A DNA stretch of 41,504 nucleotides, taken from assembly GCA_964348745.1 (NCBI GenBank), contig CAYGDT010000001.1, positions 1 to 41,504 of the forward strand. Direction: 5' to 3'. Origin of the DNA: an uncultured Candidatus Peribacteria bacterium. GTDB lineage: Bacteria; Patescibacteriota; Gracilibacteria; Peribacterales; Peribacteraceae. This document shows, in pieces, positions 2,932 through 16,971 of this stretch. The notes under the pieces were generated by a model, which saw only the letters and a list, made by a program, of their open reading frames with translations, made no database searches and was not told the DNA's origin. A program made the position numbers and the translations under genes. Each line of letters begins with the position of its first letter. Positions within the stretch are counted from its first letter, which is position 1.

Positions 2932-2962
2932 CCAACCGAAGCGCCGAAGGCGCGCAGGTTGG
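2932..2962 (-). other. tRNA-Ser 3-prime trailer hairpin that includes the encoded CCA
   Basis: Minus-strand RNA reads CCAACC-UGC-GCGCC-UUC-GGCGC-UUC-GGUUGG (6 bp / 3x3 internal loop / 5 bp / triloop). The first CCA is the tRNA 3-prime end. Confidence 0.6.
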
Positions 2963-3049
2963 CGGAGGGAGAGGGATTCGAACCCTCGAGACCCGTGAGG
3001 GTCTGGCAGTTTTCAAGACTGCTACCTTCAACCACTCGGTCATCCCTCC
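2960..3049 (-). tRNA. tRNA-Ser (anticodon UGA), long variable arm, CCA encoded
   Basis: Reverse complement reads GGAGGGATGACCGAGTGGTTGAAGGTAGCAGTCTTGAAAACTGCCAGACCCTCACGGGTCTCGAGGGTTCGAATCCCTCTCCCTCCGCCA. The 7-bp acceptor stem is GGAGGGA/TCCCTCC. The anticodon stem is GCAGT/ACTGC with loop CTTGAAA. It has a GGTTCGAATCC T-arm and a long variable arm. Confidence 0.92.
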
Positions 3050-3161: not shown

Positions 3162-3917
3162 TCAGGTATCATTAGCCGTAGTAAAGTCTACTTCGACTTG
3201 GTAATTACCAGATGGCTGCAAACGAGACGATCCGATTTCTACACGGAATCCTACGTAGTGATTATCACCTGCATCACTTGTAGGCGTCGTTGCACTAGCA
3301 AATGCGATGGACGATCCGGAAGCAACGCGTGCCCATTTTTCCGAGGCAGCATCTGTTCCCCACTCTGTGGAATTGATATCGACTGCGGCGTTGTTCTCGC
3401 TGAATACGTCGCTTGTCGAAGAAAGGCGTGCACCCCATTCGGCATCTGTCGCAGAGACGTTACCGGACCATGTTACTGTCGTGGTTTGCGCATCATTGCT
3501 GTTGTTGTAACGGAACGGTAAGATTTTATCCTCATACTGGTTGATCATGTATCCCGTGCTTGTTCCGCCTGTTCCGGTGGTGACTTGCCAGTTGAGAGTG
3601 TAGCCAGTGGTGTTATTGGACTTTACGTTGCAGTGGATATCGCGAGCAGTATTGTACTGGCCGACATCTCCACCAACACCGATGGATCCAAGCGCTAGAT
3701 TTTCATTGTCTCCGTTACTATCGCTGTTTTCATCACCACAGGAAAGTATCGAAGCTGTAGCGGTTACTGTAACGGAAACTTTGCCGTTCGTGTCGGTTGC
3801 TGCAAATCCACGAGCAGGTTCGACGACTAAAACAGCGACGAGGTAGAGGGCAACAGTTGCCGCAATACCAGTTGTAAGAATGCGCATGATGCGCTCTGGG
3901 GAAAGTAAAGTAATCAT
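3162..3917 (-). CDS. Secreted surface protein with a two-Cys beta-sandwich domain (WxL-like or SCPU-like; tentative)
   Basis: 251 aa with an N-terminal signal/anchor (ILTTGIAATVALYLVAVLVV). From about aa 53 to the end it is a clear paralog of the C-terminus of the 8486-10459 protein. Shared motifs: L-S/V-C...LxLGSI...C-x-V, GY[TS]L[NS]W, TG[TS]GGT[SA]TG[YH]MI, EWG, SEKW, V[GE][FS]R[VA]E[IV]GSS[RK][LI]QPSG[NT]Y-x-V-x-VDF. Confidence 0.7.
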   Translation of the reverse strand: MITLLSPERIMRILTTGIAATVALYLVAVLVVEPARGFAATDTNGKVSVTVTATASILSCGDENSDSNGDNENLALGSIGVGGDVGQYNTARDIHCNVKSNNTTGYTLNWQVTTGTGGTSTGYMINQYEDKILPFRYNNSNDAQTTTVTWSGNVSATDAEWGARLSSTSDVFSENNAAVDINSTEWGTDAASEKWARVASGSSIAFASATTPTSDAGDNHYVGFRVEIGSSRLQPSGNYQVEVDFTTANDT

Positions 3918-3980
3918 ATATATATGTGTGTGTAATAAATAAAACGTTGATATTATAACACACTTTTGTAATAAATCAAA

Positions 3981-5684
3981 TCAATCGCTGCAGATGTCGG
4001 TATCAGGTATACAAGAATTTGTGATGAATCCGCTTTCCAGTACACAATTCCCGAGTCGTGAGCATTCCACTGCATCACAGAAATTCCAACTCCCTGCCCC
4101 GCACATTCCACAGGAATCACACTGAGAATCATTGAATATATCCATTGTGACAGTCGGTCCCGTCGTCTCTATGGGAGCAGATGCTTGCAAGATTGACTCA
4201 TCCTCTTCTATAACCCAATTCTCCCGCTCAATGACAACTACATCATACTGGGTGCAACTCTTGTTACCTTCCAAGGCACGATAGAACATCGTGATAAATT
4301 CCGCGCGATTCACCGGATCATCAGGCCGCATGGTGCCTGTTACTGCATCTCCCTGAAGGATGCAAAGATACACTGCGGAGCTGACAACATCTGTGTACCA
4401 AGCACCCGTTGGCACATCGTAGAACAAGGGGTGCTCCATCGATATCGACGTAGCTGATTGAATTCCCAAATACCTCAGTATCAATGCTGCGGCCTGACTG
4501 CGGGTCAAAGCATCCGCCGGAGCAGCAAAGCAAGGCCTGCTTTTGCCATAGCAATCGTTATACCCACGGATCCAATTCTCCGAAGCTGCATTATCGATGT
4601 AGTGGGCATACCAAGCCTGCGGATCCACATCATCAAAGAAACCGCGTGGTACATCGCCACGGCTACCTTTTGCTATTGTCAAAATTTTAGCCGCTTCGGA
4701 GCGAAAAATTCGCTTATCTGGCTCAAAATGCGTACGAGTCGAATCGAGTGCATTCCTACGAAGGAAATACTCAACACCTTCTGCATACCAATTGTCAGTA
4801 GAAACATCGAGATAGGGAATTGATGCAATAAGTGGCAGAGCCTCCTCAACAGTTGGGTGAGGAACGGCATCTATTGTTTCAGTCTGTTGCGATTCTGGAA
4901 TCAAACTGCCGGTAGTGGAGGTTGACGGAGCTACACCAATTCGCGTATCCGAAACGGTGTTAGACGTAACTTGCACTTGACTCAGTCTCCGTGTTCGTCC
5001 CTGTGCAGCTCTGTCATCCCCTGCAACAGATCCTGCACTGCTGCTTGATCCTCCTCCAACGCCTTCGCCATCTTCACTCAATTGAAGAGTGAGACTTACG
5101 ACAGCATCGAGGACATCTACATCACCGTCGCCATTTTCAGTCATATTCGTATCCGTCGTGTCTCCCGCTGTAAAATCGAATGCCAGCGTATAGGAACTCT
5201 GTGCGGAGAGAACTTTAAAATAGAGATGCGCAAAGAGCGCGTCATCCGGCGCACTGCCGGTATTGACCGGACTTGTTCCAGAGGAATCGTATCCGGTTAC
5301 GTACAGTATCCCGTTACTGATTGCGTTGCCCGAATTTGGGTACGCGGTAAATAGTCCGTCCGTTATCGCAGAAGTTGCAGGTGAGCCGGAACAGAGTGCA
5401 TTGTCATACGGTTCCAGAAGCTCTGTGGAGTACGGCAGAATAATGTCTACCGAATTACTGTCCAAAGAATCGGTCTGCACGCGAATATTTACACGAACGC
5501 AGTCACCGACCGCGTAGGAAGTTTCTCCTGTTGAGCTAACGACAGAAATGATCTGTCCTGCAGTGGCATACGCATGCTGCGATCCGGATAGAATCAATAC
5601 TGCAATGCTGACGCCGTAGAGGAATAGAAATTTGCAACGGAGAAAAGACTTGAAATGCCGATGCAGGGAATGTTCAGAGTTCAT
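3981..5684 (-). CDS. Secreted cohesin-like + 3x SLH-domain protein with a Cys-rich C-terminal tail
   Basis: The first ATG is at 5684; the track start at 5699 is TTG. Signal peptide runs to ...SQHAYA. Track aa 48-205 look cohesin-like (VRVNIRV...VDIILPY...LFAHLYFKV...YTLAFDF), followed by a Gly/Ser/Thr linker. Three SLH-type repeats follow (YLDVSTDNWYAEGVEYF, FDDVDPQAWYAHYIDNA, FYDVPTGAWYTDVVSSA). The last about 50 aa hold 10 Cys. Confidence 0.7.
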   Translation of the reverse strand: MNSEHSLHRHFKSFLRCKFLFLYGVSIAVLILSGSQHAYATAGQIISVVSSTGETSYAVGDCVRVNIRVQTDSLDSNSVDIILPYSTELLEPYDNALCSGSPATSAITDGLFTAYPNSGNAISNGILYVTGYDSSGTSPVNTGSAPDDALFAHLYFKVLSAQSSYTLAFDFTAGDTTDTNMTENGDGDVDVLDAVVSLTLQLSEDGEGVGGGSSSSAGSVAGDDRAAQGRTRRLSQVQVTSNTVSDTRIGVAPSTSTTGSLIPESQQTETIDAVPHPTVEEALPLIASIPYLDVSTDNWYAEGVEYFLRRNALDSTRTHFEPDKRIFRSEAAKILTIAKGSRGDVPRGFFDDVDPQAWYAHYIDNAASENWIRGYNDCYGKSRPCFAAPADALTRSQAAALILRYLGIQSATSISMEHPLFYDVPTGAWYTDVVSSAVYLCILQGDAVTGTMRPDDPVNRAEFITMFYRALEGNKSCTQYDVVVIERENWVIEEDESILQASAPIETTGPTVTMDIFNDSQCDSCGMCGAGSWNFCDAVECSRLGNCVLESGFITNSCIPDTDICSD

Positions 5685-6267
5685 CGCCGGTGGTGCCAAG
5701 ATTAGAAACGGCTATTGTCAGATCAATACCATTGACGATACCGTCAAAATTTAGGTCTTCTGCACCATCTGCACCACGGAGCGTATTAGAAATTTGCGTC
5801 ACATCATCCGCACTGATGGCATTATCGTCATTCACATCCCCTGTATAGAGCTTATTTGTGCCGGTGGTGAAATCGATCTGCACTCCCTGCTGTAGCAACA
5901 CAGACAGCTTTTTACGTTTGAGATGTGACGGCGAAAATAAGAGCAATCGATAGATGCCAGGCGGTGCTTTATAGATACGCACCGGTGGAGCCACGCCCGC
6001 GGCATTGACACGGAATTTAATCCGTTCGATCAGTTGCGAACCAAGAAGCGGGTAGATCTCTAAGGTAAGATCGGTCGGTCCACGGCTCTTTTGTGGAGCG
6101 GCAAGTATATCGATAGAATACAAAGGATTGAGCACTGTTACGCCAATGGATACTGCAGAGAGAAGGGGGCTAACGGAAATTCCTGCAAAAATCAAAGAAA
6201 GCATTCCAAAGACACAGAGAAGAAGAGTACATCGCATTCCGAAGCGCTTTGCAGTTGGTTTTTGCAT
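5674..6267 (-). CDS. Membrane-anchored or secreted protein with a C-terminal dockerin-type (double EF-hand-like) module
   Basis: 197 aa with an N-terminal hydrophobic signal. The C-terminus GDVNDDNAISADDVTQISN...EDLNFDGIVNGIDLTIAVSN carries two D-x-N-x-D-x-x-I-x-x-x-D calcium-loop repeats typical of dockerins. Its stop overlaps the ATG of the cohesin/SLH gene (ATGAACTCTGA, 11-nt overlap). Confidence 0.65.
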   Translation of the reverse strand: MQKPTAKRFGMRCTLLLCVFGMLSLIFAGISVSPLLSAVSIGVTVLNPLYSIDILAAPQKSRGPTDLTLEIYPLLGSQLIERIKFRVNAAGVAPPVRIYKAPPGIYRLLLFSPSHLKRKKLSVLLQQGVQIDFTTGTNKLYTGDVNDDNAISADDVTQISNTLRGADGAEDLNFDGIVNGIDLTIAVSNLGTTGDEL

Positions 6268-6281
6268 ATCATACTATTCTA

Positions 6282-7343
6282 TCACACTTTTCGCTTTATT
6301 TCGAACCGACTTTTTACAAACTGCACCAAGAAGGAAACTGTAAATATTGCCAATAATACAAGAAGCGTTGGAACGAGGGGAATGACGAGAAACGATGATT
6401 TCAACTGATTTGCTGGTAATGAATCGCCTGTTTTCACCTCAAAGTGGATATCCGAAGAAACGGTATAGTAGCCAAAGGCAAACTTCGGCAACCACTCGAT
6501 ATACTTGGTATGAGCAGTACCTCGAAGGACATGCCATGTTGGAAGGCTTATCTCATCAACGGGAATGCCAAAAATATTTCGAAACGTCAGTGATCCGACT
6601 GGTGCAATTTGTACCGTTCCTGCATTTCTGACCGTTGCTAACATTCGTGCCGGCAATGACCAGTTAATAAACCGCTCTGGCTTCAGCGAGATAAACGAAC
6701 CGTTCGTAATAACGTCACCCCGCACAGAAACGACAAAGATAATTGAGGTGTAGGCATTCACTTTCACGCCTCCCGACTTTTCTGTCAGCTGTTTTCTCTT
6801 GATCATAATCGCAGCCATATGGTCTCCTGCATCGGCTTTTGCCGGAATTGTCAGCGTGATGGGAATCGTCACCAATTCACCATGGTGCAGCGCGATTTCC
6901 TTCACAGACGGTTGCAACCATTCCTTTGCGGGAAACGGACCGACTTGTCCGGGCTGGTAGAAACGTGGTGTGCCCGATTCCGGATCTGCGCCGAGATCAC
7001 GAACGTAGACTTCGAAAATTGCATCCTCTCCGGCTTTACTGAGGATGGTGATTGTACGCACCAGCTCATCACCCGGATCTGCTACTTCAAAAAATGAACC
7101 CGGTTGCAAGAGAAACCCGCCGTCAACCAGCACATTACTGTTGCGGTTGATGTGAATATCTACAGGACGGGCATCGAATGCATCATCGAGCAGCTGGCGC
7201 TCCTTATCCTCCAATACCTTCTGCTCATCAATGACTTCCTTGCTCAGCAAGCCTGCGGCATTGATTTCCTGCGCGGCAATCGCCGGTGAACCTGCAAAAA
7301 ATATGCAGAGAGAAAACGAAAAGAGAGCTGGGAATGAAATCAT
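6282..7343 (-). CDS. Surface protein with signal peptide and C-terminal TM anchor, DUF916/DUF3324-like (partner of WxL-type proteins; tentative)
   Basis: Start chosen at the ATG giving signal peptide MISFPALFSFSLCIFFAGSPAIAAQE; the track start at 7391 adds 16 unlikely residues. Two beta-rich halves are present (FFEVADPGDELVRTITI..., VRNAGTVQIAPVGSLTFRNIFG...FGYYTV). A single C-terminal TM segment is followed by a basic tail (KSRFEIKRKV). This layout matches my recollection of DUF916+DUF3324 proteins in Firmicutes WxL/Csc loci. Confidence 0.55.
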   Translation of the reverse strand: MISFPALFSFSLCIFFAGSPAIAAQEINAAGLLSKEVIDEQKVLEDKERQLLDDAFDARPVDIHINRNSNVLVDGGFLLQPGSFFEVADPGDELVRTITILSKAGEDAIFEVYVRDLGADPESGTPRFYQPGQVGPFPAKEWLQPSVKEIALHHGELVTIPITLTIPAKADAGDHMAAIMIKRKQLTEKSGGVKVNAYTSIIFVVSVRGDVITNGSFISLKPERFINWSLPARMLATVRNAGTVQIAPVGSLTFRNIFGIPVDEISLPTWHVLRGTAHTKYIEWLPKFAFGYYTVSSDIHFEVKTGDSLPANQLKSSFLVIPLVPTLLVLLAIFTVSFLVQFVKSRFEIKRKV

Positions 7344-7399
7344 CAGTTGCAGCCTATCGACTCTGGATAGAAAAATCCAGAGCAGGTACACTGCAAATC

Positions 7400-7957
7400 A
7401 TGAAGAAAAAAATCTCACTGCTACTCGCTGCTATCGTCATTGCATTCTGCGGATTTATTGCAAGCGTACTGTATTCCTCCTATACGCTCTCGACGCAGAT
7501 TCAAGAGCATGCTGACAACATGACAAAGTATTACGACAAGACGATTACCGAGAATATCCATCCCCTTTTGACACGTGAGCGACTTCTGCCGAATCAGAAG
7601 CGAAATGCTATGCAAATCAAGGAAATGCAAGAATCCATGATGAATGCACAAACTCTCAACGAGAGAATGACAGCAATCCAAAATGTTCAACGGTCATCAC
7701 AGGTTTTTTTGCAGTCAGCTCGAAACGCATCAGGTTCGTTGGTTGAAGACAATCATCTGCAATCCTTTGCGCGCGATATGGGAGAGCAAGGTTCCATCCG
7801 CAAAACTATAGAAGAATATAACGATCTGGCTGGCATGCTCAATGCTCAAAAAAAGTCACTGATAGCTTCACTCCAAGACGAACCGTCACAGGAACTGCCA
7901 CTGCTTCGCTTCGACGGAAGCGTTCCGGATATCGGGAAAATTCAGCTTGGTGAATGA
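7400..7957 (+). CDS. N-terminally membrane-anchored helical protein, weakly LemA-like
   Basis: Start at ATG 7400 gives MKKKISLLLAAIVIAFCGFIASVL. The rest is predicted helical. The C-terminal stretch LVEDNHLQSFARDMGEQGSIRKTIEEYNDLAGMLN loosely resembles the LemA C-terminal region. It is the only plus-strand gene inside the minus-strand surface locus. Confidence 0.45.
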   Translation: MKKKISLLLAAIVIAFCGFIASVLYSSYTLSTQIQEHADNMTKYYDKTITENIHPLLTRERLLPNQKRNAMQIKEMQESMMNAQTLNERMTAIQNVQRSSQVFLQSARNASGSLVEDNHLQSFARDMGEQGSIRKTIEEYNDLAGMLNAQKKSLIASLQDEPSQELPLLRFDGSVPDIGKIQLGE

Positions 7958-7971
7958 CAATCAATAACTTT

Positions 7972-8427
7972 TTATCGCTCCAATGTAACCGGTATCACGT
8001 TCAAAATAATGTCTGTTGATGGGCGATACAAGATTGCCAGAGATGCTGTTACGACGAGGAAATCTCCGTTCATTGCATCCACATAGAACATATTTTTCTC
8101 TCGAAGAAGACCTGCATCAATGACTTCGGCGATAGTAGGTTCAAATCCATCGGGAATTTGAATGTGTCTGCGAACACGCGCGATGATCTCTTTTGCCTTC
8201 TCGGGAGATGGTTGTCTGCTCTCAGCATCGTCTGCATCTTGAGTAGAAAGTTCTTGCCTGTCAGAAAACAGAAAGGGCAAGACAAATGATCCAACTCCTG
8301 CGATAACAAGGAGAAGAACAGCAACAACAATAGCAAGCATGAACCTATGACGCCTTTGCTGCCCTAAGCGAGAATCATGTGGTTGAGGATCATGGGGCCG
8401 GTTAATTTGTGGAGAATCGAAGTCCAT
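7972..8427 (-). CDS. Hypothetical single-pass membrane protein (151 aa)
   Basis: Polar N-terminus, one TM segment (FMLAIVVAVLLLVIAGVGSFVLPFLF), then a soluble domain of about 85 aa. No recognisable motif. Confidence 0.5.
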   Translation of the reverse strand: MDFDSPQINRPHDPQPHDSRLGQQRRHRFMLAIVVAVLLLVIAGVGSFVLPFLFSDRQELSTQDADDAESRQPSPEKAKEIIARVRRHIQIPDGFEPTIAEVIDAGLLREKNMFYVDAMNGDFLVVTASLAILYRPSTDIILNVIPVTLER

Positions 8428-8458
8428 TGCTTAAAAATACATATCGTCACGAAGGTTG

Positions 8459-8483
8459 TCATTCTCATTTTTAAGGAGAATGA
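8459..8483 (-). terminator. Hairpin directly downstream of the 657-aa gene (possible terminator)
   Basis: TCATTCTC-ATTTTTAAG-GAGAATGA: an 8-bp stem starting 3 nt after the stop at 8486. There is no clean U-run on the minus strand, so confidence is low. Confidence 0.35.
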
Positions 8484-8485
8484 TT

Positions 8486-10459
8486 CTACGGTGAAGTTAC
8501 AATGAAATCGACGGTCACGTCATACGTGCCGCTGGGTTGAATTTTAGACGATCCGACTTCTGCGCGAAATTGAAGTTGCTCAGACGATCCCGCCGGAGCG
8601 GTACTGGAGTTGCGATTGACAAGTAGCACACTGCTTCCTGTACCGACGTTCAACCATTTTTCACTGGTGAGATCCGTCCCCCATTGAACAGCAGAATCGG
8701 TACTGGAGGACTTTAGTCGACCTCCCCATTCAGACGTTGTCGCAGCGACTGTCCATGTTTCAGGTACTCCTACTACTGAAGGAGAGAACGGTCCAATAGT
8801 GTCCTCGAACTGACTGATCATATGTCCCGTTGCCGTTCCGCCCGATCCGGTCGAGACGAGCCAGGATAACGAGTATCCCGCATCGGATTCCGCAATAACG
8901 GTGCAACTTTCTTCTGCAGTGGTCTGACCGATACCGGGGATGCTCCCAAGATTAAGCGCGGTGAAACAGACGAGGGAAAGAGCGTTGCTAGCAGCTTGCC
9001 TGTACCCTGCTGAAAGATCGTAGTTTTGCGCTCTAGAAAAGCCGACACCTGGTTCGCCGATCGTATCACTCAGGCGGTAGTTATTTGAAAGCGCCAATTC
9101 TCCGCCACCCGAAGCGATAACATCAGCATCGATTTTGTAATTGGCACTTTTTTGAGCGGCATCGTTCGCAATCTGCCAAGCACGCATTTCCTGTGATTCG
9201 ATGCCACGAGTGTCAATAAGAATCAGAGGACCAACAAGATAAAATTCCGGAGAAATATCCGGTGCGTCGTAGATGTACGAAAACGTTGCTTTTTCCCCTT
9301 TATTCCATGTGCCGTTCCATGCAATTGTCGTATCCTCGGTCTGAAAATCTGTTCCTGTCACTGCTTGAGGAGATGTCTGCAGAATGGCAAACCCGCGCGG
9401 AACAATATCGGAGATTGTGCCTGTAAATTCTTCCGTAAACTCCACGTCGATTTCCATACGCGACGGCGCGAAAGGCCAGAGACGGGTCGCTGCGCGACGC
9501 GTGATGATCACCGATGGGGACGATTGCACGGAAACGGAGGAAGTAAGCGTCGTCGTACGCTCAGCAACAATCGATTGCAGCTGCAATGCGTATTCACCTT
9601 CTTGTGTGAACAAAAACGACGCTCTGTAGTCCGGGTCAATCAATCCTGCTTCTTTGACTCCGCAGGATTCGGTCGTCTCTATAGATTCGTCTTCTGTGGA
9701 GAGAACATGTCTGGAACCGTCCGGTGCTATGATAGTGAGCATCACATTCGCATTGCATACAATTTCACCTTGGTCATCCAACACGCCAAAATGCAGCTGC
9801 GCTCTCTCGTTCGTACGATAGCGATCCTGATGTGTATTGAGCGTAAGTACGCCCCATGCAAAGTCTTGCTCTGAATACCTCCCGTCAGTCGACGCGATAC
9901 GCAACGTATAGTACCCTGGACGGAATTGGCGCTCATCCAACGTAAATTCTGCACTGCCGGGCGTAAAATGATAATGAGGAAAATAGGTCACTCCGTCATT
10001 TCGTGTCAGACTCACAGTAACGGAAGTTGTTGGAAGTGGTTGCACTTCAGCAGACAAAGAAGAATTCTCCTGAGACAACCGAGATAATGATGAGTATGCA
10101 CTGCTGGGTGACGAGGAAGAATTGCGCATTGCAGATTGCACGTTCACAACTGTCCCTGCAGGCAAGCTCTCTGCATTGTCCGGTAGAGCATTGCGAAAAT
10201 TTGCACCCTGAGCATCCAAATCCTCCACAAGATCATGCAATGCCGGCGAAAGTTCCAGAGAAAATCCGAAGACTGATGCCGTTGTCGAACGATGTATGAA
10301 GAGGTATCCAGCAAGTACAGCAGACGTAATCAATATGGCAGCAAGGGTGCGTAACTCGCTTCGCCGAGAATGAGTAGCAATGATTGATGGAAAAGTCATC
10401 GGTGTGCATCCTATCAAACTATCAAAGATTACGCATTGTTCAGTAGCGTTGCGACACAT
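8486..10459 (-). CDS. Large membrane-anchored surface protein ending in the same two-Cys beta-sandwich domain as 3162-3917
   Basis: 657 aa; an alternative ATG lies at 10399. It has an N-terminal TM anchor (LAAILITSAVLAGYLFI) and a Ser-rich linker. Ig/MG-like beta domains follow (DRYRTNERAQLHFGVLDDQGEIV...), then a C-terminal domain of about 160 aa paralogous to the 251-aa protein. Confidence 0.7.
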   Translation of the reverse strand: MCRNATEQCVIFDSLIGCTPMTFPSIIATHSRRSELRTLAAILITSAVLAGYLFIHRSTTASVFGFSLELSPALHDLVEDLDAQGANFRNALPDNAESLPAGTVVNVQSAMRNSSSSPSSAYSSLSRLSQENSSLSAEVQPLPTTSVTVSLTRNDGVTYFPHYHFTPGSAEFTLDERQFRPGYYTLRIASTDGRYSEQDFAWGVLTLNTHQDRYRTNERAQLHFGVLDDQGEIVCNANVMLTIIAPDGSRHVLSTEDESIETTESCGVKEAGLIDPDYRASFLFTQEGEYALQLQSIVAERTTTLTSSVSVQSSPSVIITRRAATRLWPFAPSRMEIDVEFTEEFTGTISDIVPRGFAILQTSPQAVTGTDFQTEDTTIAWNGTWNKGEKATFSYIYDAPDISPEFYLVGPLILIDTRGIESQEMRAWQIANDAAQKSANYKIDADVIASGGGELALSNNYRLSDTIGEPGVGFSRAQNYDLSAGYRQAASNALSLVCFTALNLGSIPGIGQTTAEESCTVIAESDAGYSLSWLVSTGSGGTATGHMISQFEDTIGPFSPSVVGVPETWTVAATTSEWGGRLKSSSTDSAVQWGTDLTSEKWLNVGTGSSVLLVNRNSSTAPAGSSEQLQFRAEVGSSKIQPSGTYDVTVDFIVTSP

Positions 10460-10686: not shown

Positions 10687-13600
10687 ATGTTTTCACTCTG
10701 TTCCTCCGACGATGCCAAGCGGCTTTACGCTTCTGTATGCGCCTCGCAACTGAGCGAACGTGCGAAGAAACGCTTGGACTGGATTGTGTACTACCTTGAG
10801 AACGGCAAGTCTATCAGTGAGACGTGCAGGATGTTTTCGATTTCACGCAGTACGTTTTACCGTGTGATTGAACGATTTGATCCTGCGGATATCACATCAC
10901 TGGAGGATAAGCCACACGCACATTGTTTGCGCTCACATACGGAACTACCGGCGGTTGCGATGGAACGCATCCGCGACGAACGGAAGAGGGAGCCGACAAT
11001 AAGTCGAGAGCGTATCGCAGAAATTCTCGCATCGGAATGCGGTATCGCTGTCTCTCCTTCTTTGATAGGCCGCATTATCAATCGCGAAGGATTGTTTTTT
11101 GGTGCGAGTCTCGCACATCAGAAGAAAAGGATCGAAAAGACAGCAGTGCAGGATGTAGATCATTCAGCAATTGCAGTCGGAAACTCTGCTCCCACATCAT
11201 CAAAATTGCTATTTGTACCTACTCGCCTGACGCTGATGACTCTGAGTATCGGCATCATTATAGCAGCCATGGTCGGAGGAAGTTTAACGGCTACAGTATT
11301 GTCTTCACCGAAGAGAGAAAACATTTCGGATGATCTTGTTATACGATGTGAGGAAGTTCTCAGAACATTTGCTTCGGTGCTTTCGTGGTATAAGCAACAT
11401 GGCAGGCAATATGAAGTGTCTGAAAGTGAGCAGATTGAACTCGATGCGTGCCGAAGCATTATCGACGGCCACACAAAGAACAAATCGTCTACCCTAAAAC
11501 CACTGGGGGCTGCCCTGCGATCAATTCTGAGCATTCCGCGCGCATATGCTGCAGAGGGTATTTTTAAGAAAATTCCGTACCAAGGAAATGTAACACTGAC
11601 ATCGGGAGCAGGGATGAGCAACGGCCAGTACAATATGCGCTTCAAAATCTTTGATGCGGCAAGCGGCGGGACGGAATTATGGTCTGAAACATGGGACAGC
11701 AATACACAACCTGTGACGATGACCGGAGGACTCTTTACAGTGTATCTCGGGACGCATATTGCAATGAACAACGTAGACTTCAATACGGATTCACTCTACC
11801 TCCAAGTGCAGTTTGACCCAGGAAATGACGATGTCTACGAGGAAACATTCTCACCGAGACGCAGGTTCGCATCCGTTCCGTATGCGCTAAATTCCGACAA
11901 AGTAGACGGTCTCGATGCCACGCAGTTTCTCCGCAGTGATGCAAGCGATGTGATGAGTGGCTCTCTGCTCATCCACCAATCTGGACAATCCGTATCGGGA
12001 GCAGATGCTCGGGTACAACTGGAAATCATCGGTACTGCATCTGGGAGAGTTCTGCATGCACAAGACCTGCTGACATCCTCCGGCAAATTGATTGTTGAGG
12101 GAACATCTTTGCTCTACGGCTATGTTGATATTTTTCGAATGCTCTCGATACATGACACGGCATCCGGAAGAGTACTGCACGCTGAAGATTCACTGCAATC
12201 CTCTGGATCACTCATCGTAGAAGGTGAAACAACGCTTAATGGTGCGCTGGTTCTCGGTTCCACTATCCGTATTAACGGTGTTACCTACACCTTCCCTGCT
12301 GGTGATGGCTCTGCTTCTGGCAAAGTACTCAAAACAAACGGCACAGGACAGCTCGCTTGGTCTAGCGACACTACTGGGTCAACATATTATGCTGGCGCAG
12401 GCCTATCGCTCAATGGCGCAAACTTCCTGTCCCTCTCTTCGACACTTACCGGTACCTCCTTGGAGATCACCGGTACGGCAAGCGGAAGAATCGTCCATGC
12501 GCAAGATCTCCTTCGCTCCTCCGGAGCACTCATCGTGAAAGGTACTACGCGCCTGCAATCAGGAGCCATTATAAGAATGGCGGCACCACTCCTTATCCTC
12601 CGTAGTAGTGTAACTTCCCAGCAGTGGGAGTTGAAAGGTGGCAGTACTTTATCGTCTTCTTTTAGTATCTATGATGCCACAGCAAAGAAAATCAGATTCG
12701 TGGTTGGCGGCTCAGACGGCAATACTACGATCGGTACTGGTGTGTCTGTCAGCAACAGCCGACTATACGTCTGGGGAGGTCCCAACGGTGCGAATATTGA
12801 CGTCCGGGGAGATGCTTCCATTGTTGGGGGCGATCAGTCGACCATAGAGCTTGAGGGCAATAACTATGATGTCGACCCCAATTCCATTCGCATGACGTAC
12901 TATGGTGCTAGCCATGGCATCGGGACAACCATGGGATACAGTAACAATAAACTCGGCGTGCTCGCATGGCAGGGCGTTAATACAGCCATCATTGCTGTGC
13001 AAGACATCAAACCTCTTCTCTTTGGTACAAGCAATAAGGAACGCATGAGACTGACCGAGACTGGTTCTCTTGCGATTGGAACTGCGACACCGGGTCGCTC
13101 TAAATTGGCTGTCTCCGGTTCTACGATTATGGGTTTCAATATTGGCTCCGCAGCCGCCGACGCAGGACTTGCACTCGAAGTCCTCGGTACGGCATCCGGT
13201 CGTATCTTCCATGCGCAAGACGAACTGCGCTCCTCCGGTACTCTGATCGTCGATGGAACCACAACGCTCAACGGTGCGCTGGTTCTTGGTTCCACTATCC
13301 GTATCGGTGGGGTCACCTATACCTTCCCTGTCGGCGATGGCTCCGCATCGGGCAAAGTACTCAAAACAAATGGTGCAGGGCAACTCTCTTGGTCAACCGA
13401 TAGCACTGGAGGAGGTGGATCGTACTACGCAGGCCAAGGCCTGTCTCTCAACGGTAGTAACTTCCTCTCCCTCGCAGCCACCCTCACAGGAACATCTCTG
13501 GAAATCTACGGAACAGCTTCCGGAAGAATCCTCCATGCACAAGACCAACTGCGTTCCTCCGGCACACTGATTGTGAAAGGAACAACACGCCTGCAATCAG

Positions 13601-16600
13601 GTGCTATCATCAAAATGACGTCACCACTCCTCGGTGACGGTCTCCAATTCATCATCGACCAGTCGCAGATCAGCGGTCCGGGACGTATTATGGCGATCGA
13701 TGATAATGTTGGTTCGGAAATCTTTGCTATCAACAAGTATGGATTCATAAAAACTGAGCGCGGCTATGTGTCCTACGATGGATTCATGGGACAAGAGTTC
13801 AATGACGAGAGAGCATCTGCTGCAGCCGACCTTGCGACACGCGGCGATGACGGGACATGGGTGTTCGACGAGGGAGCAGCGACATCCACCTGTACCGACA
13901 TCGTAGCGGAGGGCTCAATAAGTTTCGACCGTATGACTAACTCCGCCACACAACCAGCAGGCTGTGCCATGTTCATGGGAATCGGAGTCGGAGACATCAT
14001 GGGATTCACTAATGCTGCGAACTTGCCGCGCACGCTCATTAAGATACGACCGGGTCGCGCTACTGCCGATGCGCATACATGGGCTGGACTCTTTATCGAT
14101 TGGGCTCCCTCCGCAACCGAACCAACAGAGGGTATTTACTTCACCAATGCTGCGGGCGGTACATGGACCGGCCGCATTAACCCCGCATCCGGAGCGAGTT
14201 CAGATGTTGTCTGTACCGGGCAAACCATCTCGACAACACAGTTTGCTGCATTAGAAATTATCGTTGAGAGCTCGACCATCGTCCGTTTCAAAGTAGATAA
14301 TGACTTATCAAACGGTATTAACTTTGTAGACTGCGGCACGGGAAACCCTAGTGGCGTCACCAGTAACTTGGGGGCAGGTGTGTTTATGGGTACCACCTCC
14401 ACGACTAGCTTTACTATGGATACGGATTACGTTCGTGTATGGACAGATGACCCAAAAACAAGTGGGCAGTCCGTCGTGCAGACTCCAGAAACGCCAACAG
14501 AGCTGGATCTTACAACGAGTGCCGACCTCGCCGAAGCATACCCTGCCATCGACGCAGGAAGTTTTGGAGCCGGTGAGCTCGTTTCCATAGACGAAAAAGG
14601 AGATGGAAGTGTGCGAAAAAGTAAAAATCCATACGAGAAAAATTTGATCGGCGTCGTGAGCGCATCACCCTACGATGTCATGGGTGCGCAGTCGGAGAAT
14701 ACCGTAGCCATAGCACTAGCCGGACGTGTACCTGTAAGAGTCTCGACGGAGAACGGGCCTATTGCTGTGGGCGAATCCATCACCTCTTCTTCGAAGCCCG
14801 GCATCGGTATGAGAGCAAGTTCAGCAGGCCCAATCATCGGGAAAGCAATGCAAGCGTACGATGGTCAAGGTGAAGGTATCATTATGGTGTTTGTCTATGC
14901 AGGAGACTACGTCGGTGATGGGCTGTACCTGCTTGGCAGCGGCGCAAACACAATAGGTGAAAGCACTCAAAATTCCGGCACTTCAGCTGAGTATGCGGAA
15001 TGGTTTAAAGTATCAAACGATCATCCGATCGCCGGCGAAGTAGTTTGTATCGATCCGACAACACCGCAATCCGTTGCATATTGTGCAGATGAGCCGAGTG
15101 AAAACATCGTTGGCATTGTCGCCACGAGAGCGCAAATCGTAGGCAATGAATTTACAGGAGTACAGGGACTGCCTGTACCCGGTCACGTTCTGGTTGGCCT
15201 CATGGGGCAGACAACTGTAAAAGTCACTACTTTGGAAGGCAAATCCATTCGCATCGGAGATGCTCTCACTGCAGCAAGTACGAAAGGATTCGCACGCAAA
15301 TCGATCCGAGGTGAACCGACTATCGGGGTTGCTTTGGAAGAATTCACAGGTGAGGACGGCACAATTTCCATCCTTATATCCCGCAACAATGCTTCGCACA
15401 CTATGCAAGAAATCGAACAGAAGATACTCGATACCGTTGCGAGCATGGGACTCACCGAAAAGATGCAGAGCATCATCGCGCAGAGTATTGATACACTCGA
15501 CTTCGGTTATTCGATTAAAGAAGAAGTACGCGAGCAGCTACTGGCTCTCTACCTCTCGGAACCGCAGACTGCCGATGCACCATCTGTGAAACCGACACTT
15601 CCTGAGTTACTTACGCACGCACGCTCGTTCTCCGGTTCTACTCTGTTTGCTGGAAATGTCGAAGTTCAAGGAGCCCTTTCCGTGAGCGGACCTGTGAATA
15701 TGAGTGGCAGTCTCACCGTTGCCGAAATTCTTCGAACATCGCATCTCACCGCCTCAGGAAACCTCACTGTCGGTGGCTCCGCGCGTATCATGGGCGATGC
15801 CTATGTCGAAGGCACGCTGACCATCGCTTCGCTTATTGTGCCCGATGCTCTACATGTATATGGAGACATGACCGTACAAGGCTTCGTACAAGCGTATCAT
15901 CTTTCTGCCTCCAGTGGGGCAACCATCCGCGGGTCGATCGACATCGATACGCAGACAGGGTCGATCCGCATAGGATCCGGTTCTATCTCCATCAAATCCG
16001 GAAATATGATCCTCGAGAATGGAAGTATCGATGTGCAAGAACTCATCGTCCGCAAAGCGCTGTTACTCCACGGAGACATTACCGTAGAGGGTCTTGCTGT
16101 CTTCCTCGGCAATCTCGAAGTCCGCGGAGACCTGATTTTGAGTGACCGCCAGGCAGGATTTGCAGAGATTCCTGCCGGAGTAAGCAGTGTCAGAATCTCG
16201 TATGGAACAGGATTCATCGCAACTCCGATCATCACGGCAACACCGATGAGTCGTCTTAATACATCGTGGTGGATCGATGCTGTGACAAGCTCCGGGTTTA
16301 CGATCTTCTCTGCAGATCCCGTACCGCAGAATGCTCTCTTCTCATGGAATGCGATGCTCACAAACAATCCGAAAACCTTTAAAGGAACTGATAGTGAAAA
16401 AATACTGATCGACTTCCCCGTCGATTCATACGGTGTACCTCTCTCGAGCAACCCCGCTTGGAATGCATGCATCAGAAATCAAACACTCATTGATGAAGAA
16501 TCGGGAAAACCATTCAACTGCAGTCGCTACCATCAAGAACAGTTATGGACCCAGCCGGATCTGCTTCTGGAATTCCTCTACGATCCTGAGGCAAGCCCGA

Positions 16601-16971
16601 AATTTACGTTGCCGGATAACTATCGTATCGTTACGATCGAAGATACGAATAGTCAACGTGATCCATTGCCTGTAGGCGATGAAGAGGGATCCGAAGTGGT
16701 AGAAGAGAAAGTGGTAGGAGAGGAAATAGAAGAAGTAGAGGAAGTAGAAGGAGGAGAGGAAGTTGAAGAAGTTGAAGAAATAGAGGAAATTGAGGAAGTA
16801 GAAGGAGGAGAAGCGGAGAGCGAATCCGGGGCTGGATCTCAAATACCTCCAGTGGAATCAGAGGAAAATATTCAAGAGGAGCAACCGAAAGAAGTATCGA
16901 ACGAACAGAATGACACTACACAACAAACGCCAACAGAGACCGTGAATCCGGTTGAGGATACTGCGTCATAG
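10687..16971 (+). CDS. Giant (2094 aa) HTH - TM - tail-fibre-like surface protein
   Basis: One uninterrupted ORF.
- aa 25-135: transposase-type HTH (ISETCRMFSISRSTFYRVIERF...LEDKP...RERIAEIL...SPSLIGRII).
- aa 180-205: one TM helix.
- Fibre-type motifs follow (IPYQGNVT...YNMRFKIFD...LWSE; SVPYALNSDKVDGLDATQFLRSD).
- Five copies of TASGR[VI]xHA[QE]DxLxSSGxLIVxG and a duplication of about 155 aa.
- Two DLAEAY/YAEWF...VALAGRVPV-type modules.
- A beta-helix-like G/V/S-rich region.
- A WNACIRN module and an acidic E/V tail. Confidence 0.8.
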   Translation: MFSLCSSDDAKRLYASVCASQLSERAKKRLDWIVYYLENGKSISETCRMFSISRSTFYRVIERFDPADITSLEDKPHAHCLRSHTELPAVAMERIRDERKREPTISRERIAEILASECGIAVSPSLIGRIINREGLFFGASLAHQKKRIEKTAVQDVDHSAIAVGNSAPTSSKLLFVPTRLTLMTLSIGIIIAAMVGGSLTATVLSSPKRENISDDLVIRCEEVLRTFASVLSWYKQHGRQYEVSESEQIELDACRSIIDGHTKNKSSTLKPLGAALRSILSIPRAYAAEGIFKKIPYQGNVTLTSGAGMSNGQYNMRFKIFDAASGGTELWSETWDSNTQPVTMTGGLFTVYLGTHIAMNNVDFNTDSLYLQVQFDPGNDDVYEETFSPRRRFASVPYALNSDKVDGLDATQFLRSDASDVMSGSLLIHQSGQSVSGADARVQLEIIGTASGRVLHAQDLLTSSGKLIVEGTSLLYGYVDIFRMLSIHDTASGRVLHAEDSLQSSGSLIVEGETTLNGALVLGSTIRINGVTYTFPAGDGSASGKVLKTNGTGQLAWSSDTTGSTYYAGAGLSLNGANFLSLSSTLTGTSLEITGTASGRIVHAQDLLRSSGALIVKGTTRLQSGAIIRMAAPLLILRSSVTSQQWELKGGSTLSSSFSIYDATAKKIRFVVGGSDGNTTIGTGVSVSNSRLYVWGGPNGANIDVRGDASIVGGDQSTIELEGNNYDVDPNSIRMTYYGASHGIGTTMGYSNNKLGVLAWQGVNTAIIAVQDIKPLLFGTSNKERMRLTETGSLAIGTATPGRSKLAVSGSTIMGFNIGSAAADAGLALEVLGTASGRIFHAQDELRSSGTLIVDGTTTLNGALVLGSTIRIGGVTYTFPVGDGSASGKVLKTNGAGQLSWSTDSTGGGGSYYAGQGLSLNGSNFLSLAATLTGTSLEIYGTASGRILHAQDQLRSSGTLIVKGTTRLQSGAIIKMTSPLLGDGLQFIIDQSQISGPGRIMAIDDNVGSEIFAINKYGFIKTERGYVSYDGFMGQEFNDERASAAADLATRGDDGTWVFDEGAATSTCTDIVAEGSISFDRMTNSATQPAGCAMFMGIGVGDIMGFTNAANLPRTLIKIRPGRATADAHTWAGLFIDWAPSATEPTEGIYFTNAAGGTWTGRINPASGASSDVVCTGQTISTTQFAALEIIVESSTIVRFKVDNDLSNGINFVDCGTGNPSGVTSNLGAGVFMGTTSTTSFTMDTDYVRVWTDDPKTSGQSVVQTPETPTELDLTTSADLAEAYPAIDAGSFGAGELVSIDEKGDGSVRKSKNPYEKNLIGVVSASPYDVMGAQSENTVAIALAGRVPVRVSTENGPIAVGESITSSSKPGIGMRASSAGPIIGKAMQAYDGQGEGIIMVFVYAGDYVGDGLYLLGSGANTIGESTQNSGTSAEYAEWFKVSNDHPIAGEVVCIDPTTPQSVAYCADEPSENIVGIVATRAQIVGNEFTGVQGLPVPGHVLVGLMGQTTVKVTTLEGKSIRIGDALTAASTKGFARKSIRGEPTIGVALEEFTGEDGTISILISRNNASHTMQEIEQKILDTVASMGLTEKMQSIIAQSIDTLDFGYSIKEEVREQLLALYLSEPQTADAPSVKPTLPELLTHARSFSGSTLFAGNVEVQGALSVSGPVNMSGSLTVAEILRTSHLTASGNLTVGGSARIMGDAYVEGTLTIASLIVPDALHVYGDMTVQGFVQAYHLSASSGATIRGSIDIDTQTGSIRIGSGSISIKSGNMILENGSIDVQELIVRKALLLHGDITVEGLAVFLGNLEVRGDLILSDRQAGFAEIPAGVSSVRISYGTGFIATPIITATPMSRLNTSWWIDAVTSSGFTIFSADPVPQNALFSWNAMLTNNPKTFKGTDSEKILIDFPVDSYGVPLSSNPAWNACIRNQTLIDEESGKPFNCSRYHQEQLWTQPDLLLEFLYDPEASPKFTLPDNYRIVTIEDTNSQRDPLPVGDEEGSEVVEEKVVGEEIEEVEEVEGGEEVEEVEEIEEIEEVEGGEAESESGAGSQIPPVESEENIQEEQPKEVSNEQNDTTQQTPTETVNPVEDTAS
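12142..12594 (+). repeat. Internal duplication, copy 1 (about 150 codons) within the giant gene
   Basis: Peptide ...DTASGRVLHAEDSLQSSGSLIVEGETTLNGALVLGSTIRINGVTYTFPAGDGSASGKVLKTNGTGQLAWS...TLTGTSLEITGTASGRIVHAQDLLRSSGALIVKGTTRLQSGAIIRMAAPLL. The similarity to copy 2 is also obvious at nucleotide level (for example ggtgcgctggttctcggttccactatccgtat). Confidence 0.85.
13168..13632 (+). repeat. Internal duplication, copy 2 within the giant gene
   Basis: Peptide LALEVLGTASGRIFHAQDELRSSGTLIVDGTTTLNGALVLGSTIRIGGVTYTFPVGDGSASGKVLKTNGAGQLSWS...TLTGTSLEIYGTASGRILHAQDQLRSSGTLIVKGTTRLQSGAIIKMTSPLL. It lies about 1.03 kb downstream of copy 1. Confidence 0.85.
16681..16825 (+). repeat. Purine-rich low-complexity coding repeat (acidic E/V/G tail of the giant protein)
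   Basis: GAA/GAG/GTA/GGA codon runs encode EEKVVGEEIEEVEEVEGGEEVEEVEEIEEIEEVEGGEAESE. Confidence 0.8.

Follow-up and report, generated by a model that had tools for sequence, protein, structure and literature searches.

Surface-protein clusters of the WxL/Csc type are known from Lactobacillales and Bacillales, where a small and a large WxL protein are encoded together with a WxLIP (the Ig-like domains DUF916, or PGBD, and DUF3324, or HBD, followed by a TM segment) and the LPXTG protein CscD (PMC1534035; PMC10599100), and the commonest type of WxL cluster holds exactly one WxLIP, one small and one large subunit (PMC10599100). In the candidate phyla radiation (CPR), the Pam pilus has been described from Candidatus Mycosynbacter amalyticus, and NCBIfam holds the models NF058579 (PamT) and NF058581 (CPR_Pam_pilin_C) for it; Pam proteins form filaments, whose assembly is ascribed to donor-strand exchange through a linker strand, PamC and PamD are described as PapD/FimC-like chaperones anchored in the membrane by a C-terminal TM helix and PamR as an RbmA-like anchor, a tail-fibre-like gene co-localises with pam operons, ATP-synthase genes lie nearby, and Peregrinibacteria and Gracilibacteria are never mentioned in the preprint (Troman et al., bioRxiv 10.64898/2026.03.03.709456).

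The locus considered here belongs to an uncultured Candidatus Peribacteria bacterium (Patescibacteriota; Gracilibacteria; Peribacterales; Peribacteraceae), and was analysed within a stretch of 41,504 nt, hereafter the window (assembly GCA_964348745.1, contig CAYGDT010000001.1, positions 1-41,504, forward strand). Judging from the NCBIfam models that match its large subunit and the relatives of that protein, its nearest counterpart among described systems is the CPR Pam pilus, which was overlooked in the first-pass annotation of this DNA. The locus is a variant of known surface-fibre systems and not a cellulosome hybrid; it probably encodes a surface structure of the Pam/WxL kind, a fibre or a complex, that is exported by Sec and put together with a chaperone and no usher.

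Gene layout and conservation of the cluster

Six minus-strand genes and one plus-strand gene for exported or membrane-anchored proteins had been listed in the first-pass annotation, and all seven (g1 to g7) are indeed present as ORFs at the coordinates given below. A Kyte-Doolittle scan detected one N-terminal hydrophobic segment in each of the products (7/7), and an extra C-terminal one in g4 (residues 334-352). The small subunit g1, the large subunit g7 and the membrane-anchored g4 all lie inside 7.3 kb. The genes do not form the single operon initially supposed, since g5 (7400-7957, or from 7286; plus strand; 185-223 aa), located between g6 and g4, is read from the other strand and splits them into at least three transcription units, namely g7-g6, g5 and g4-g3-g2-g1; scanning for promoter and terminator consensus sequences gave counts no higher than in shuffled sequence. 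The g5 product is single-pass and largely helical, with no significant family match in Pfam or NCBIfam, and its gene adjoins g4 in at least 11 loci. The other single-pass protein, g6 (7972-8427, minus strand, 151 aa), was seen only in the window and in its closest relative (L004).

The divergent neighbour g8 (10687-16971, plus strand, 2094 aa) is composed of an HTH part (residues 25-131), a TM segment (186-204) and a giant fibre-like ectodomain, with matches to HTH_23/28/32 in Pfam and to Bdello_MAT_N in NCBIfam (E=8e-6). It is a conserved neighbour of the cluster, HTH and giant-protein homologues standing beside g4 in 11 distinct loci. Pfam searches returned no ATP-synthase domain among the 28 larger ORFs of the window and no usher-like gene among 28 window ORFs.

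Twenty-five loci were retrieved with the g4 profile and compared with the seven products by tblastn, all the related ones coming from Peribacteria, Peregrinibacteria or other CPR. The neighbourhood, treated as one locus in the first pass, is indeed conserved and not due to chance: in 23 of the 25 loci g4 has a single g1-like neighbour or two, in most cases downstream of it, and the full order g4-g3-g2-g1 recurs in 9 further species-level genomes (10 with the window) at protein identities of only 33-65%. The cluster as such is conserved in more than 20 genomes of Peribacteria and Peregrinibacteria, and among unrelated metagenomic contigs picked from the g4 family, all four with readable flanks hold a g4-like gene beside genes for the C-terminal domain described below.

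Putative pilin-like subunits and a chaperone-like protein

The small subunit g1 (3162-3917, minus strand, 251 aa) starts with an N-terminal signal or anchor bearing a conserved ...AEPxRGFA motif, followed by a short β-strand-like extension (KVSVTVTA) and a putative Pam-type C-terminal domain (CTD). In the large subunit g7 (8486-10399/10459, minus strand, 637-657 aa, 637 from the annotated start) an N-terminal TM or signal segment precedes a macroglobulin/Ig-like β-sandwich stalk, a triple SxNYx(L/I) segment and a CTD of the same type. The domain common to the two proteins, already recognised in the first pass, was confirmed by 43% identity over 173 residues between g1 and the C-terminus of g7 (E=3e-36); g1 scored E=7e-84 against the CTD-family profile, and no further ORF of the window contains the domain. 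In g7 it occupies 8489..9001 (minus strand, ORF residues 487-657) and is preceded by a linker at 9002..9160 (minus strand, ORF residues 434-486; SANYKI...SNNYRLSDTIGEP...AQNYDLSAGYRQ), whose motif also forms the N-terminus of PamT-like small proteins. Linker and CTD are kept in 26 homologues of g7, and some loci hold small proteins composed of these two parts. The AF2 model of g7 is confident for residues 126-411 and of low confidence for linker and CTD (pLDDT 25-77), and its Foldseek matches are α2-macroglobulin, C3 and integrin leg domains.

Comparison with the Pam families gave distant matches. The NCBIfam PamT model was matched by g7 (E=5.7e-10, 39 bits, residues 434-539) and by 6 of the 29 CTD-family members (best E=4.4e-13, 49 bits), in one case near full length (residues 18-259 aligned with 9-238 of the 241 model positions), while CPR_Pam_pilin_C was matched by 3 of the 29 (best E=6e-5, 23 bits); g1 alone matched neither model at E<=1. 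The curated cut-offs stand at 240 bits for PamT, against 32-49 for the matches, and at 55 bits for the pilin model, against 16-23. The CTD of g1 and g7 thus appears related to that of CPR Pam pilins and PamT, and the scores indicate homology at the level of a superfamily rather than equivalogs.

The first-pass annotation had likened the two proteins that share this domain to members of WxL/Csc clusters. The domain is not recognisable as WxL: none of the 29 family members matched the Pfam WxL models at E<=1, and hhalign against real WxL domains returned probabilities of 0.3-0.4% (E=0.15-0.24). The best local alignment pairs the two families along their N-terminal β-strand segment and first W motif; the C-terminal motif of the CTD reads T-F-T where WxL has T-W-x-L, the second W-x-L motif being missing.

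In the membrane-anchored chaperone-like protein g4 (6282-7343/7391, minus strand, 353-369 aa) a signal is followed by two Ig-like domains, each a β-sandwich, and by a TM helix at the C-terminus (AF2 model, pLDDT 90.5). Its three top Foldseek matches were crystal structures of an Enterococcus faecium WxLIP (9i1y/9i25, E=6e-13 to 7.5e-13), aligned over about 267 columns spanning both domains, and were followed by the pilus chaperones CfaA, CsuC, Caf1M, FimC and EcpB (E from 1e-10 to 4e-7) and by RbmA. TM-scores were low (0.35-0.46, rmsd about 10 Å), which probably reflects domain orientation and limits the claim for g4 to the level of fold and family. At sequence level the g4-family profile matched EfmWxLIP1 among PDB sequences (E=2.2e-10) and the WxLIPs of 5 of the 6 lactic-acid-bacterial plasmid WxL clusters searched, and PF06030 (DUF916) was matched by 39 of 83 g4 relatives, g4 itself reaching only E=0.27; the PF11797 (DUF3324) model matched neither g4 nor any of the 83. 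The family is large, with 10,599 clusters (more than 10,000 at 50% identity), and a profile scan of the window ORFs found no second g4-like or TM-anchored two-domain gene. The DUF916-like protein with a C-terminal TM anchor proposed in the first pass is therefore upheld by fold and profile: g4 is a homologue of the DUF916-type WxLIPs, similar in fold to the chaperones of chaperone-usher pili and anchored to the cytoplasmic membrane by its C-terminal helix. It could be an anchor instead of a chaperone, because RbmA-like folds score well too.

By analogy with the complex of a WxLIP with a long WxL protein and with the complexes proposed for PamC/D and pilins, on which this step is modelled, g4 would cap the Ig-like domain of the two subunits, presumed to be incomplete, after export by means of a donated β-strand. 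Donor-strand exchange would then join the subunits, with g7 as the distal, adhesive subunit of two parts, followed by at least one copy of g1, and adhesion to another cell, host or partner, would be the likely function. The same proteins might alternatively build a non-filamentous WxL-type wall platform, where g4 stays on the small and the large subunit and the g7 stalk is displayed as an adhesin with no polymerisation. Hassan and Williamson proposed such an arrangement for Firmicute WxL clusters, and it accords with the WxLIP homology of g4, with the set of a single WxLIP-like protein plus one small and one large subunit that typifies the commonest WxL clusters, and with the absence from g1 of the SxNY linker of PamT-like proteins. 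The CTD, however, is related to the models for filament-forming Pam proteins and is not detectably WxL, and the N-terminal β-strand extension of g1-type proteins, their frequent tandem duplication and the small proteins made of linker and CTD give the layout of polymerising pilins, so that we hold the platform to be rather unlikely.

SLH anchor and dockerin pair

The wall-anchor protein g2 (3981-5684/5699, minus strand, 567-572 aa) comprises a signal, an N-terminal domain of about 170 aa, a Ser/Gly-rich linker, three SLH repeats and a Cys-rich tail. The repeat region (4260..4817, minus strand, residues ~290-475) was recognised as SLH by Pfam (E=5.6e-9), and residues 296-380 matched the SLH domain of Bacillus anthracis Sap among PDB sequences (E=3.9e-4), in agreement with the initial assignment. 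The N-terminal domain (5040..5567, minus strand, residues ~40-215), conserved in 9 homologues, had been called a cohesin, an identity that the sequence does not support: none of the 9 homologues matched PF00963 at E<=10, the domain profile retrieved nothing at E<=10 from all PDB sequences, among which cohesins are many, and hhalign against CipA cohesins gave a probability of 1.1%.

Upstream, g3 (5674-6267, minus strand, 197 aa) carries an N-terminal TM or signal segment, a β-sandwich weakly resembling CarboxypepD_reg, and a C-terminal dockerin-like module with a duplicated Ca-binding segment (5698..5856, minus strand, residues 138-190; GDVNDDNAISADD...DLNFDGIVNGIDL). The window copy scored 21.9 bits on Dockerin_1 (PF00404; gathering cut-off 22.9), and the model was matched in all 9 members of the family (best E=1.4e-6), in whose alignment the dockerin motifs are conserved. 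PDB sequence matches were mostly dockerin modules, including the nine best (best E=0.0036), and weak ones reach into the X-dockerin of ScaA; the dockerin of the first pass is accordingly retained. The stop of g3 overlaps the start of g2 by 11 nt, identically in three related loci (L004, L011 and L015), and g3 and the g2 N-domain are present together in 10 of 10 loci and both absent in 15 of 15.

An SLH protein stands beside g4 in 18 distinct loci, the window included, and 8 distinct loci keep g4, an SLH protein and g1 and have neither the g2 N-domain nor g3; the g3/g2 N-domain pair is therefore accessory, and the SLH anchor is core. The SLH proteins of reduced type start with a conserved strand, E-x-V-C-I-x-V-x-V-I-G, resembling the N-terminus of g1-type proteins (E-T-A-V-V-Q-V-T-L). 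It is by synteny that g2 and g3 are linked to g4, g1 and g7. In the proposed chaperone-assembled fibre or complex, g2 would tether the assembly non-covalently to a wall polymer, possibly through an N-terminal strand that mimics that of the pilin, in the role played elsewhere by PamR or by an LPXTG protein. The dockerin of g3 would bind the N-domain of g2, as an optional module gained and lost along with it.

The first pass had seen in these genes the anchoring logic of cellulosomes, and g2 might indeed be an SdbA-type cohesin-SLH anchor that shows dockerin proteins, with the remaining genes as cargo. The SdbA-like order of g2 (N-domain, linker and three SLH repeats), the dockerin of g3 with its weak matches into the ScaA X-dockerin, and the strict co-occurrence of g3 with the g2 N-domain in overlapping genes would suit such a scaffold. 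Against it, the cohesin is without sequence support, and in the eight loci noted above the pair is absent although g4, g1 and the SLH gene persist. Moreover, neither the g3-family profile on all ORFs nor Pfam on the 28 larger ones revealed another dockerin in the window, or an enzyme or scaffoldin bearing one; g3, the sole dockerin found, has no catalytic domain detectable by Pfam and no scaffold domain. Cellulosome-type anchoring is thus improbable. That the genes are functionally unrelated envelope genes and mere neighbours, as the three or more transcription units, the opposite strand of g5 and the presence of g6 in a single other locus might suggest, is disfavoured by synteny to the point of being very improbable, given the pairing of g4 with CTD genes in 23 loci as well as on unrelated metagenomic contigs, and the order g4-g3-g2-g1 held in 10 genomes of divergent proteins.

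Comparison with known surface systems

With the SLH-cohesin anchors of cellulosomes (SdbA, OlpB and Orf2p, which bind type II X-dockerins) the locus shares the succession of an N-terminal module, a linker and three SLH repeats in g2, and a partner, g3, in which a dockerin-like duplicated Ca-binding segment follows a β-sandwich. It differs in that the g2 module is not detectably a cohesin, that neither enzymes nor a scaffoldin were found in the window, and that related genomes can do without the g2 N-domain/g3 pair, which here is embedded among pilus-like genes. Pili of the classical chaperone-usher type (Fim, Pap, Caf1, Csu and CFA/I) resemble the locus in the two-domain chaperone fold of g4 and in donor-strand complementation and exchange, which we infer for the present locus; here, however, there is neither outer membrane nor usher, g4 is membrane-tethered whereas the classical chaperone is soluble and periplasmic, and sequence similarity is lacking.

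The resemblance to WxL/Csc clusters claimed in the first pass holds for the architecture and fails for the WxL domain itself. A small, domain-only g1, a large g7 that ends in the CTD, and g4, with two Ig domains, a TM anchor and homology to WxLIPs by fold and profile, lie a few genes apart, each kind of cluster has a wall-attached small component, and an HTH gene adjoins the cluster in both. In contrast, the shared CTD is no recognisable WxL domain (no PF13731 match, second W-x-L missing), the DUF3324 model is unmatched by sequence in g4 relatives, and inspection of the translations revealed no evident small LPXTG protein of the CscD type in the cluster. The SLH protein g2 takes the wall-anchor position in place of LPXTG and sortase, and the host belongs to the CPR instead of the Firmicutes.

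We suggest tentatively, as a possibility short of an even chance, that this locus bridges the WxL/Csc clusters of Firmicutes and the Pam pili of CPR bacteria, and that both have branched from a single family, ancient and very widespread, in which a membrane-tethered chaperone of the WxLIP type assembles fibres by donor-strand exchange in a monoderm envelope. If so, the wall anchor would be an exchangeable module that differs between lineages (SLH, LPXTG or TM anchor), and the dockerin with its receptor would be an addition made in Peribacteria, serving to plug more proteins onto the SLH protein. The WxL proteins known from Enterococcus, Listeria and Lactobacillus would then be subunits of a pilin-like kind and not just binders of peptidoglycan.

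The Pam pilus itself shares with the locus a CPR host, Sec export and the lack of an usher. In both, the small subunit amounts to the C-terminal domain, which is that of a pilin in Pam and appears related to it here, larger subunits have β-sandwich domains in front of it, a fibre-like giant gene (here g8) lies nearby, and the assembly factor (here g4) combines two β-domains resembling those of chaperone-usher chaperones with a C-terminal TM helix; g4 is alike in architecture and fold to PamC/PamD as these are known from their description. The scores far under the family cut-offs mark the proteins as distant relatives, not equivalogs, and the window holds a single chaperone-like gene, with neither a PamR resembling RbmA nor ATP-synthase genes found in it. 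The lineage is also different, being that of the Peribacteria. The large subunit g7 bears a macroglobulin-like multi-domain stalk, and the gene for an SLH wall anchor is part of the core, that for the dockerin protein being accessory.

Gene layout and the WxLIP-type protein

The six minus-strand ORFs and the single plus-strand ORF that the first-pass annotation had described in this cluster are all present as placed: with starts as publicly annotated for this contig, g1 (3162-3917), g2 (3981-5684), g3 (5674-6267), g4 (6282-7343; 353 aa, P0001), g6 (7972-8427) and g7 (8486-10399; 637 aa, P0028) are encoded on the minus strand and g5 (7400-7957) on the plus strand. A hydropathy scan of the seven products revealed one N-terminal hydrophobic segment in each and an additional C-terminal one in g4 only. 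The genes had been taken for one operon, but they form at least three transcription units, since g5, on the opposite strand, separates g7-g6 from g4-g3-g2-g1; promoter and terminator signals were uninformative on the units, their consensus-scan counts being no higher than in shuffled sequence. A tRNA-Ser(TGA) gene (2960-3049, minus strand) lies immediately downstream of g1. Single-sequence searches of Pfam and NCBIfam with all eight proteins, the divergent giant neighbour g8 included, returned only SLH, borderline dockerin, HTH and PamT matches.

In the AlphaFold2 model of g4, which is confident (25-sequence alignment, mean pLDDT 90.5), two β-sandwich domains precede a long helix at the C-terminus. 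Its top three Foldseek matches in the PDB were chains of 'WxLIP from Enterococcus faecium' (9i1y and 9i25, the latter 'bound to long WxL'; E=5.8e-13 to 7.5e-13), the DUF916+DUF3324 transmembrane (TM) protein of Gram-positive WxL clusters, and the next ranks were occupied by the chaperone-usher pilus chaperones CfaA, CsuC, Caf1M, FimC and EcpB (8e-11 to 4e-7) and by RbmA of V. cholerae. TM-scores were modest (0.35-0.46), as would be expected for two differently hinged domains. The g4 family counts 10,599 clusters at 50% identity (profile against 1.84 billion representative proteins, E<=1e-3). While the window copy alone reached only E=0.27 on PF06030 (WxLIP_PGBD, formerly DUF916), this model was matched by 39 of 83 sampled relatives, and the profile of the relatives matched the EfmWxLIP1 sequence in a PDB-wide search (E=2.2e-10) as well as the WxLIPs in five of six lactic-acid-bacterial plasmid WxL clusters searched. 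Since the fold evidence from Foldseek agrees with that of the family profile and PF06030, g4 is a WxLIP-type protein; the proposed likeness to DUF916 therefore holds, whereas PF11797 (DUF3324) found no sequence match among g4 and its relatives.

The domain shared by g1 and g7

The small subunit g1 is made up of one domain alone, which aligns with the last 170 residues of the large subunit g7 at 43% identity (E=3e-36). In g7 this domain follows a macroglobulin/Ig-like stalk and a triple SxNYx(L/I) segment, and no further copy of it, nor of a g4-like domain, was found among the other ORFs of the 41.5-kb window. The AlphaFold2 model of g7 is confident at residues 126-411; Foldseek matches of the full-length protein (α2-macroglobulin, C3, integrin legs) all derived from the stalk, and none from the C-terminal domain, which is too poorly modelled to search.

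The initial reading of the shared domain as WxL found no support. None of 29 family members matched the Pfam WxL models, the family profile returned nothing significant for WxL among PDB sequences (which include the long-WxL chain of 9i25), and hhalign comparisons with 11 and then 16 real WxL domains from lactic-acid-bacterial plasmids, run in local, global and low-mact modes, gave no significant result (probability 0.3-0.4%); in the best local alignment, itself not significant, the two families line up at their N-terminal β-strand segment and at the first W motif. Matches were obtained to models of Pam, a pilus system of CPR bacteria: PamT (NCBIfam NF058579) matched g7 with E=5.7e-10 and six of the 29 family members (best E=4.4e-13, one spanning model positions 9-238 of 241), and CPR_Pam_pilin_C (NF058581) matched three (best E=6e-5). 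Judged on sequence profiles, the shared-domain family are relatives of Pam pilus proteins, and distant ones, because all these scores fall well below the curated cut-offs.

Two kinds of small subunits can be told apart in the family alignment: a PamT-like type, bearing the SxNY repeats that form the linker of g7, and a g1 type with a single N-terminal β-strand-like extension and a strikingly conserved signal region (LSPER..R..TVG...LY....AEPxRGxA; alignment A4). Conservation to this unusual degree suggests either that a peptidase or sorting step is dedicated to the signal or that it is retained as an anchor.

Five g4-like proteins picked from the global family were looked up on their metagenomic contigs. 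In all four with readable flanks (L036-L039), small proteins matching the shared-domain profile are encoded next to the g4-like gene, one such neighbour also matching PamT in three of them; the pairing of g4-like and shared-domain genes is thus general. On the fifth contig (L035) the neighbours match Pam_pilin_C or PamT and not the shared-domain profile. On this contig g4-like genes stand in tandem, and two g4-like units are fused to a LytR_C domain in a protein of 802 aa.

Conservation, wall anchor and dockerin module

Homologues of g4 and g7 occur in Candidatus Peribacteria/Peregrinibacteria genomes and metagenomes. Scanning one genome per GTDB species with the g4 profile yielded 25 loci, 20 of them labelled Peribacteria, Peribacteraceae or Peregrinibacteria, two other Patescibacteria and two short 'Bdellovibrionales' contigs; in two contigs of Actinomycetota there was a g4-like match each, of a more distant kind. 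When all window proteins were compared with the fetched loci by tblastn and ORF-level blastp, one or two g1-like genes adjoined g4 in 23 loci, and the full g4-g3-g2-g1 order recurred in nine further genomes (L004, L008-L011, L014, L015, L018, L019) with 33-65% identity between the proteins. A reduced form, with g4, an SLH protein and g1 but without g3 and the N-terminal domain of g2, was found in CP082927.1, a complete genome of Peribacteria, as well as in L005, L006, L007 and L016, and in L012, L013 and L021 the SLH gene is placed upstream of g4 instead. Homologues of g5 and of the HTH and giant protein (g8) stand beside g4 in at least 10 loci. The genes are therefore not scattered in relatives, and the SLH protein is a member of the conserved core.

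The SLH repeats attributed to g2 were borne out by Pfam (E=5.6e-9) and by a match to the Sap SLH domain in the PDB. So was the dockerin in g3: the window copy lies one bit under the Pfam cut-off, all nine g3 family members match (best E=1.4e-6), dockerin modules account for most matches among PDB sequences, including the nine best, and the duplicated Ca-binding motif is conserved in the family. The N-terminal domain of g2, proposed to be a cohesin, is conserved in nine homologues recovered from the fetched loci. None of them matched PF00963 in Pfam, the profile of the domain matched nothing in the PDB sequence set, and the hhalign comparison with three true CipA cohesins from the PDB gave a probability of 1%; sequence support for a cohesin is thus lacking, although with profiles this shallow (Neff about 2) the result is absence of evidence. 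The domain is present exactly where g3 is (both in 10 loci, neither in 15, a count that shared ancestry may inflate), and the stop of g3 overlaps the start of g2 in four loci (the window, L004, L011 and L015), each time by 11 nt. This pattern is partner-like, and the pair is an accessory module, since eight distinct loci have g4, the SLH protein and g1 but lack it.

The end of g2 (3981-4160) encodes about ten cysteines within the last ~60 residues; in most longer homologues the tail is a hydrophobic segment followed by basic residues. The SLH proteins of reduced loci (L001:11075-12265, L005, L006, L007, L016) share a conserved strand after the signal, E-x-V-C-I-x-V-x-V-I-G..D(G)DPGT..C, which resembles the N-terminal strand of g1-type subunits. 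The likeness hints at a candidate donor strand, by which the SLH protein might plug into the last subunit and anchor the assembly to the wall.

On the other side of the cluster, g8 (10687-16971, plus strand) is a single 2094-aa ORF in which an IS630/IS481-like HTH (residues 25-131) and a TM segment (residues 186-204) are fused to a giant ectodomain of fibre-like character. A stretch resembling Bdello_MAT_N, a β-helix of the FapA/bactofilin type and an acidic tail rich in E and V can be recognised in this ectodomain. The HTH-TM part has a gene of its own (237 aa) in CP082927.1, where it overlaps the giant gene by 4 nt, and the fusion in the window may be genuine or the product of a frameshift. 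Around the locus lie envelope-remodelling genes, encoding a LysM-M23 peptidase (17008-17874, minus), a second M23 peptidase (39468-40505, plus) and an O-antigen ligase-like Wzy_C protein with TPR repeats (36396-38435, minus). A protein with three PKD domains and four ORFs of 320-590 aa without Pfam match lie side by side (24602-26671, 26652-27638 and 27684-28658, minus; 28722-30497 and 30574-32244, plus) and may constitute a further surface-protein region. Genes for tRNA-Pro(CGG) (28694-28770, plus) and tRNA-Leu(CAG) (39040-39126, minus) are found elsewhere in the window.

Proposed assembly and comparison with known systems

A life attached to other cells is generally assumed for Peribacteria and other CPR bacteria, whose attachment machinery is, to our knowledge, largely undescribed. 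The homologies and architectures, the N-terminal hydrophobic segments for export or anchoring and the conserved synteny are well supported, and onto them the following assembly can be projected. On the outer face of the membrane, g4 would cap the Ig-like domain of g1 and g7, presumed to be incomplete, with a complementing donor strand, as AlphaFold predicts for WxLIP and WxL (PMC10599100) and in keeping with the existence of the 9i25 complex. Strand exchange would then join the subunits, with g7 as the putative distal adhesive subunit, the SLH repeats of g2 would fix the structure to a wall polymer, and g3 would dock onto the N-terminal domain of g2.

Such a strand-exchanged filament has its main rival in a WxL-type platform that does not polymerise. 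Against a cellulosome-like scaffold, an unlikely reading, speak the lack of cargo among the window ORFs scanned and the accessory status of the pair of g3 and the g2 N-terminal domain; the chance co-location of unrelated envelope genes is disfavoured by the conserved synteny. A prophage or tail-fibre origin of g8 and the cluster was rejected, no phage genes lying nearby among neighbours that are housekeeping and envelope genes, as was a sortase pilus: the sortase-domain gene (22534-23391, minus) is 12 kb off and overlaps that of a 505-aa multi-pass membrane protein without Pfam match (21045-22562, minus), which is no pilin. AT skew is strong (0.21-0.27) over this stretch (20-23 kb).

In the Pam system, as described in a 2026 preprint, filaments of PamA and PamB arise by donor-strand exchange, the strand in question being situated between a sandwich at the N-terminus and a truncated Ig domain at the C-terminus; PamT has nothing but this C-terminal domain, the FimC/PapD-like proteins PamC and PamD end in a TM helix, and a tail-fibre-like gene is a conserved neighbour (bioRxiv 10.64898/2026.03.03.709456). 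The layout of the present cluster is alike: g1 is the domain alone, as PamT is, g7 combines stalk, linker segment and domain, g4 is a TM-anchored chaperone-like protein and g8 a fibre-like giant neighbour. The wall anchor differs, as the SLH protein would here take the role of membrane-anchored PamR in the Pam model and of LPXTG proteins in WxL clusters. Bona fide WxL clusters on Enterococcus plasmids (L032, L033, L034, L041) are accompanied by a small LPXTG protein and, next to them, an HTH protein of ~480-505 aa, so that an HTH gene and a wall-anchored protein adjoin the clusters of both Enterococcus and Peribacteria.

As PamT-like subunits and a demonstrable homologue of WxLIP are found together in this locus, Firmicute WxL clusters and CPR Pam pili may be related assembly systems, a suggestion whose support is limited to the chaperone-like component. 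The poorly understood WxL clusters of Gram-positive virulence and adhesion are thereby tied to a filament system of solved structure, and the idea of strand complementation in WxL becomes directly testable. Furthermore, g3 and the g2 N-terminal domain are a candidate non-cellulosomal dockerin-receptor pair, whose clean co-occurrence suits it to binding tests. Peregrinibacteria, Gracilibacteria, WxL, SLH and dockerin are unmentioned in the Pam preprint (bioRxiv 10.64898/2026.03.03.709456), so that Pam-type pili, as distant relatives, would reach a lineage absent from it, while the 2016 description of Peribacteria genomes noted large extracellular and S-layer proteins and not this cluster. The system is not categorically new and belongs with Pam pili and WxL clusters, from which it is set apart by its Peribacteria lineage, an SLH anchor as a core gene, the accessory dockerin and receptor pair and the macroglobulin-like stalk on the large subunit.
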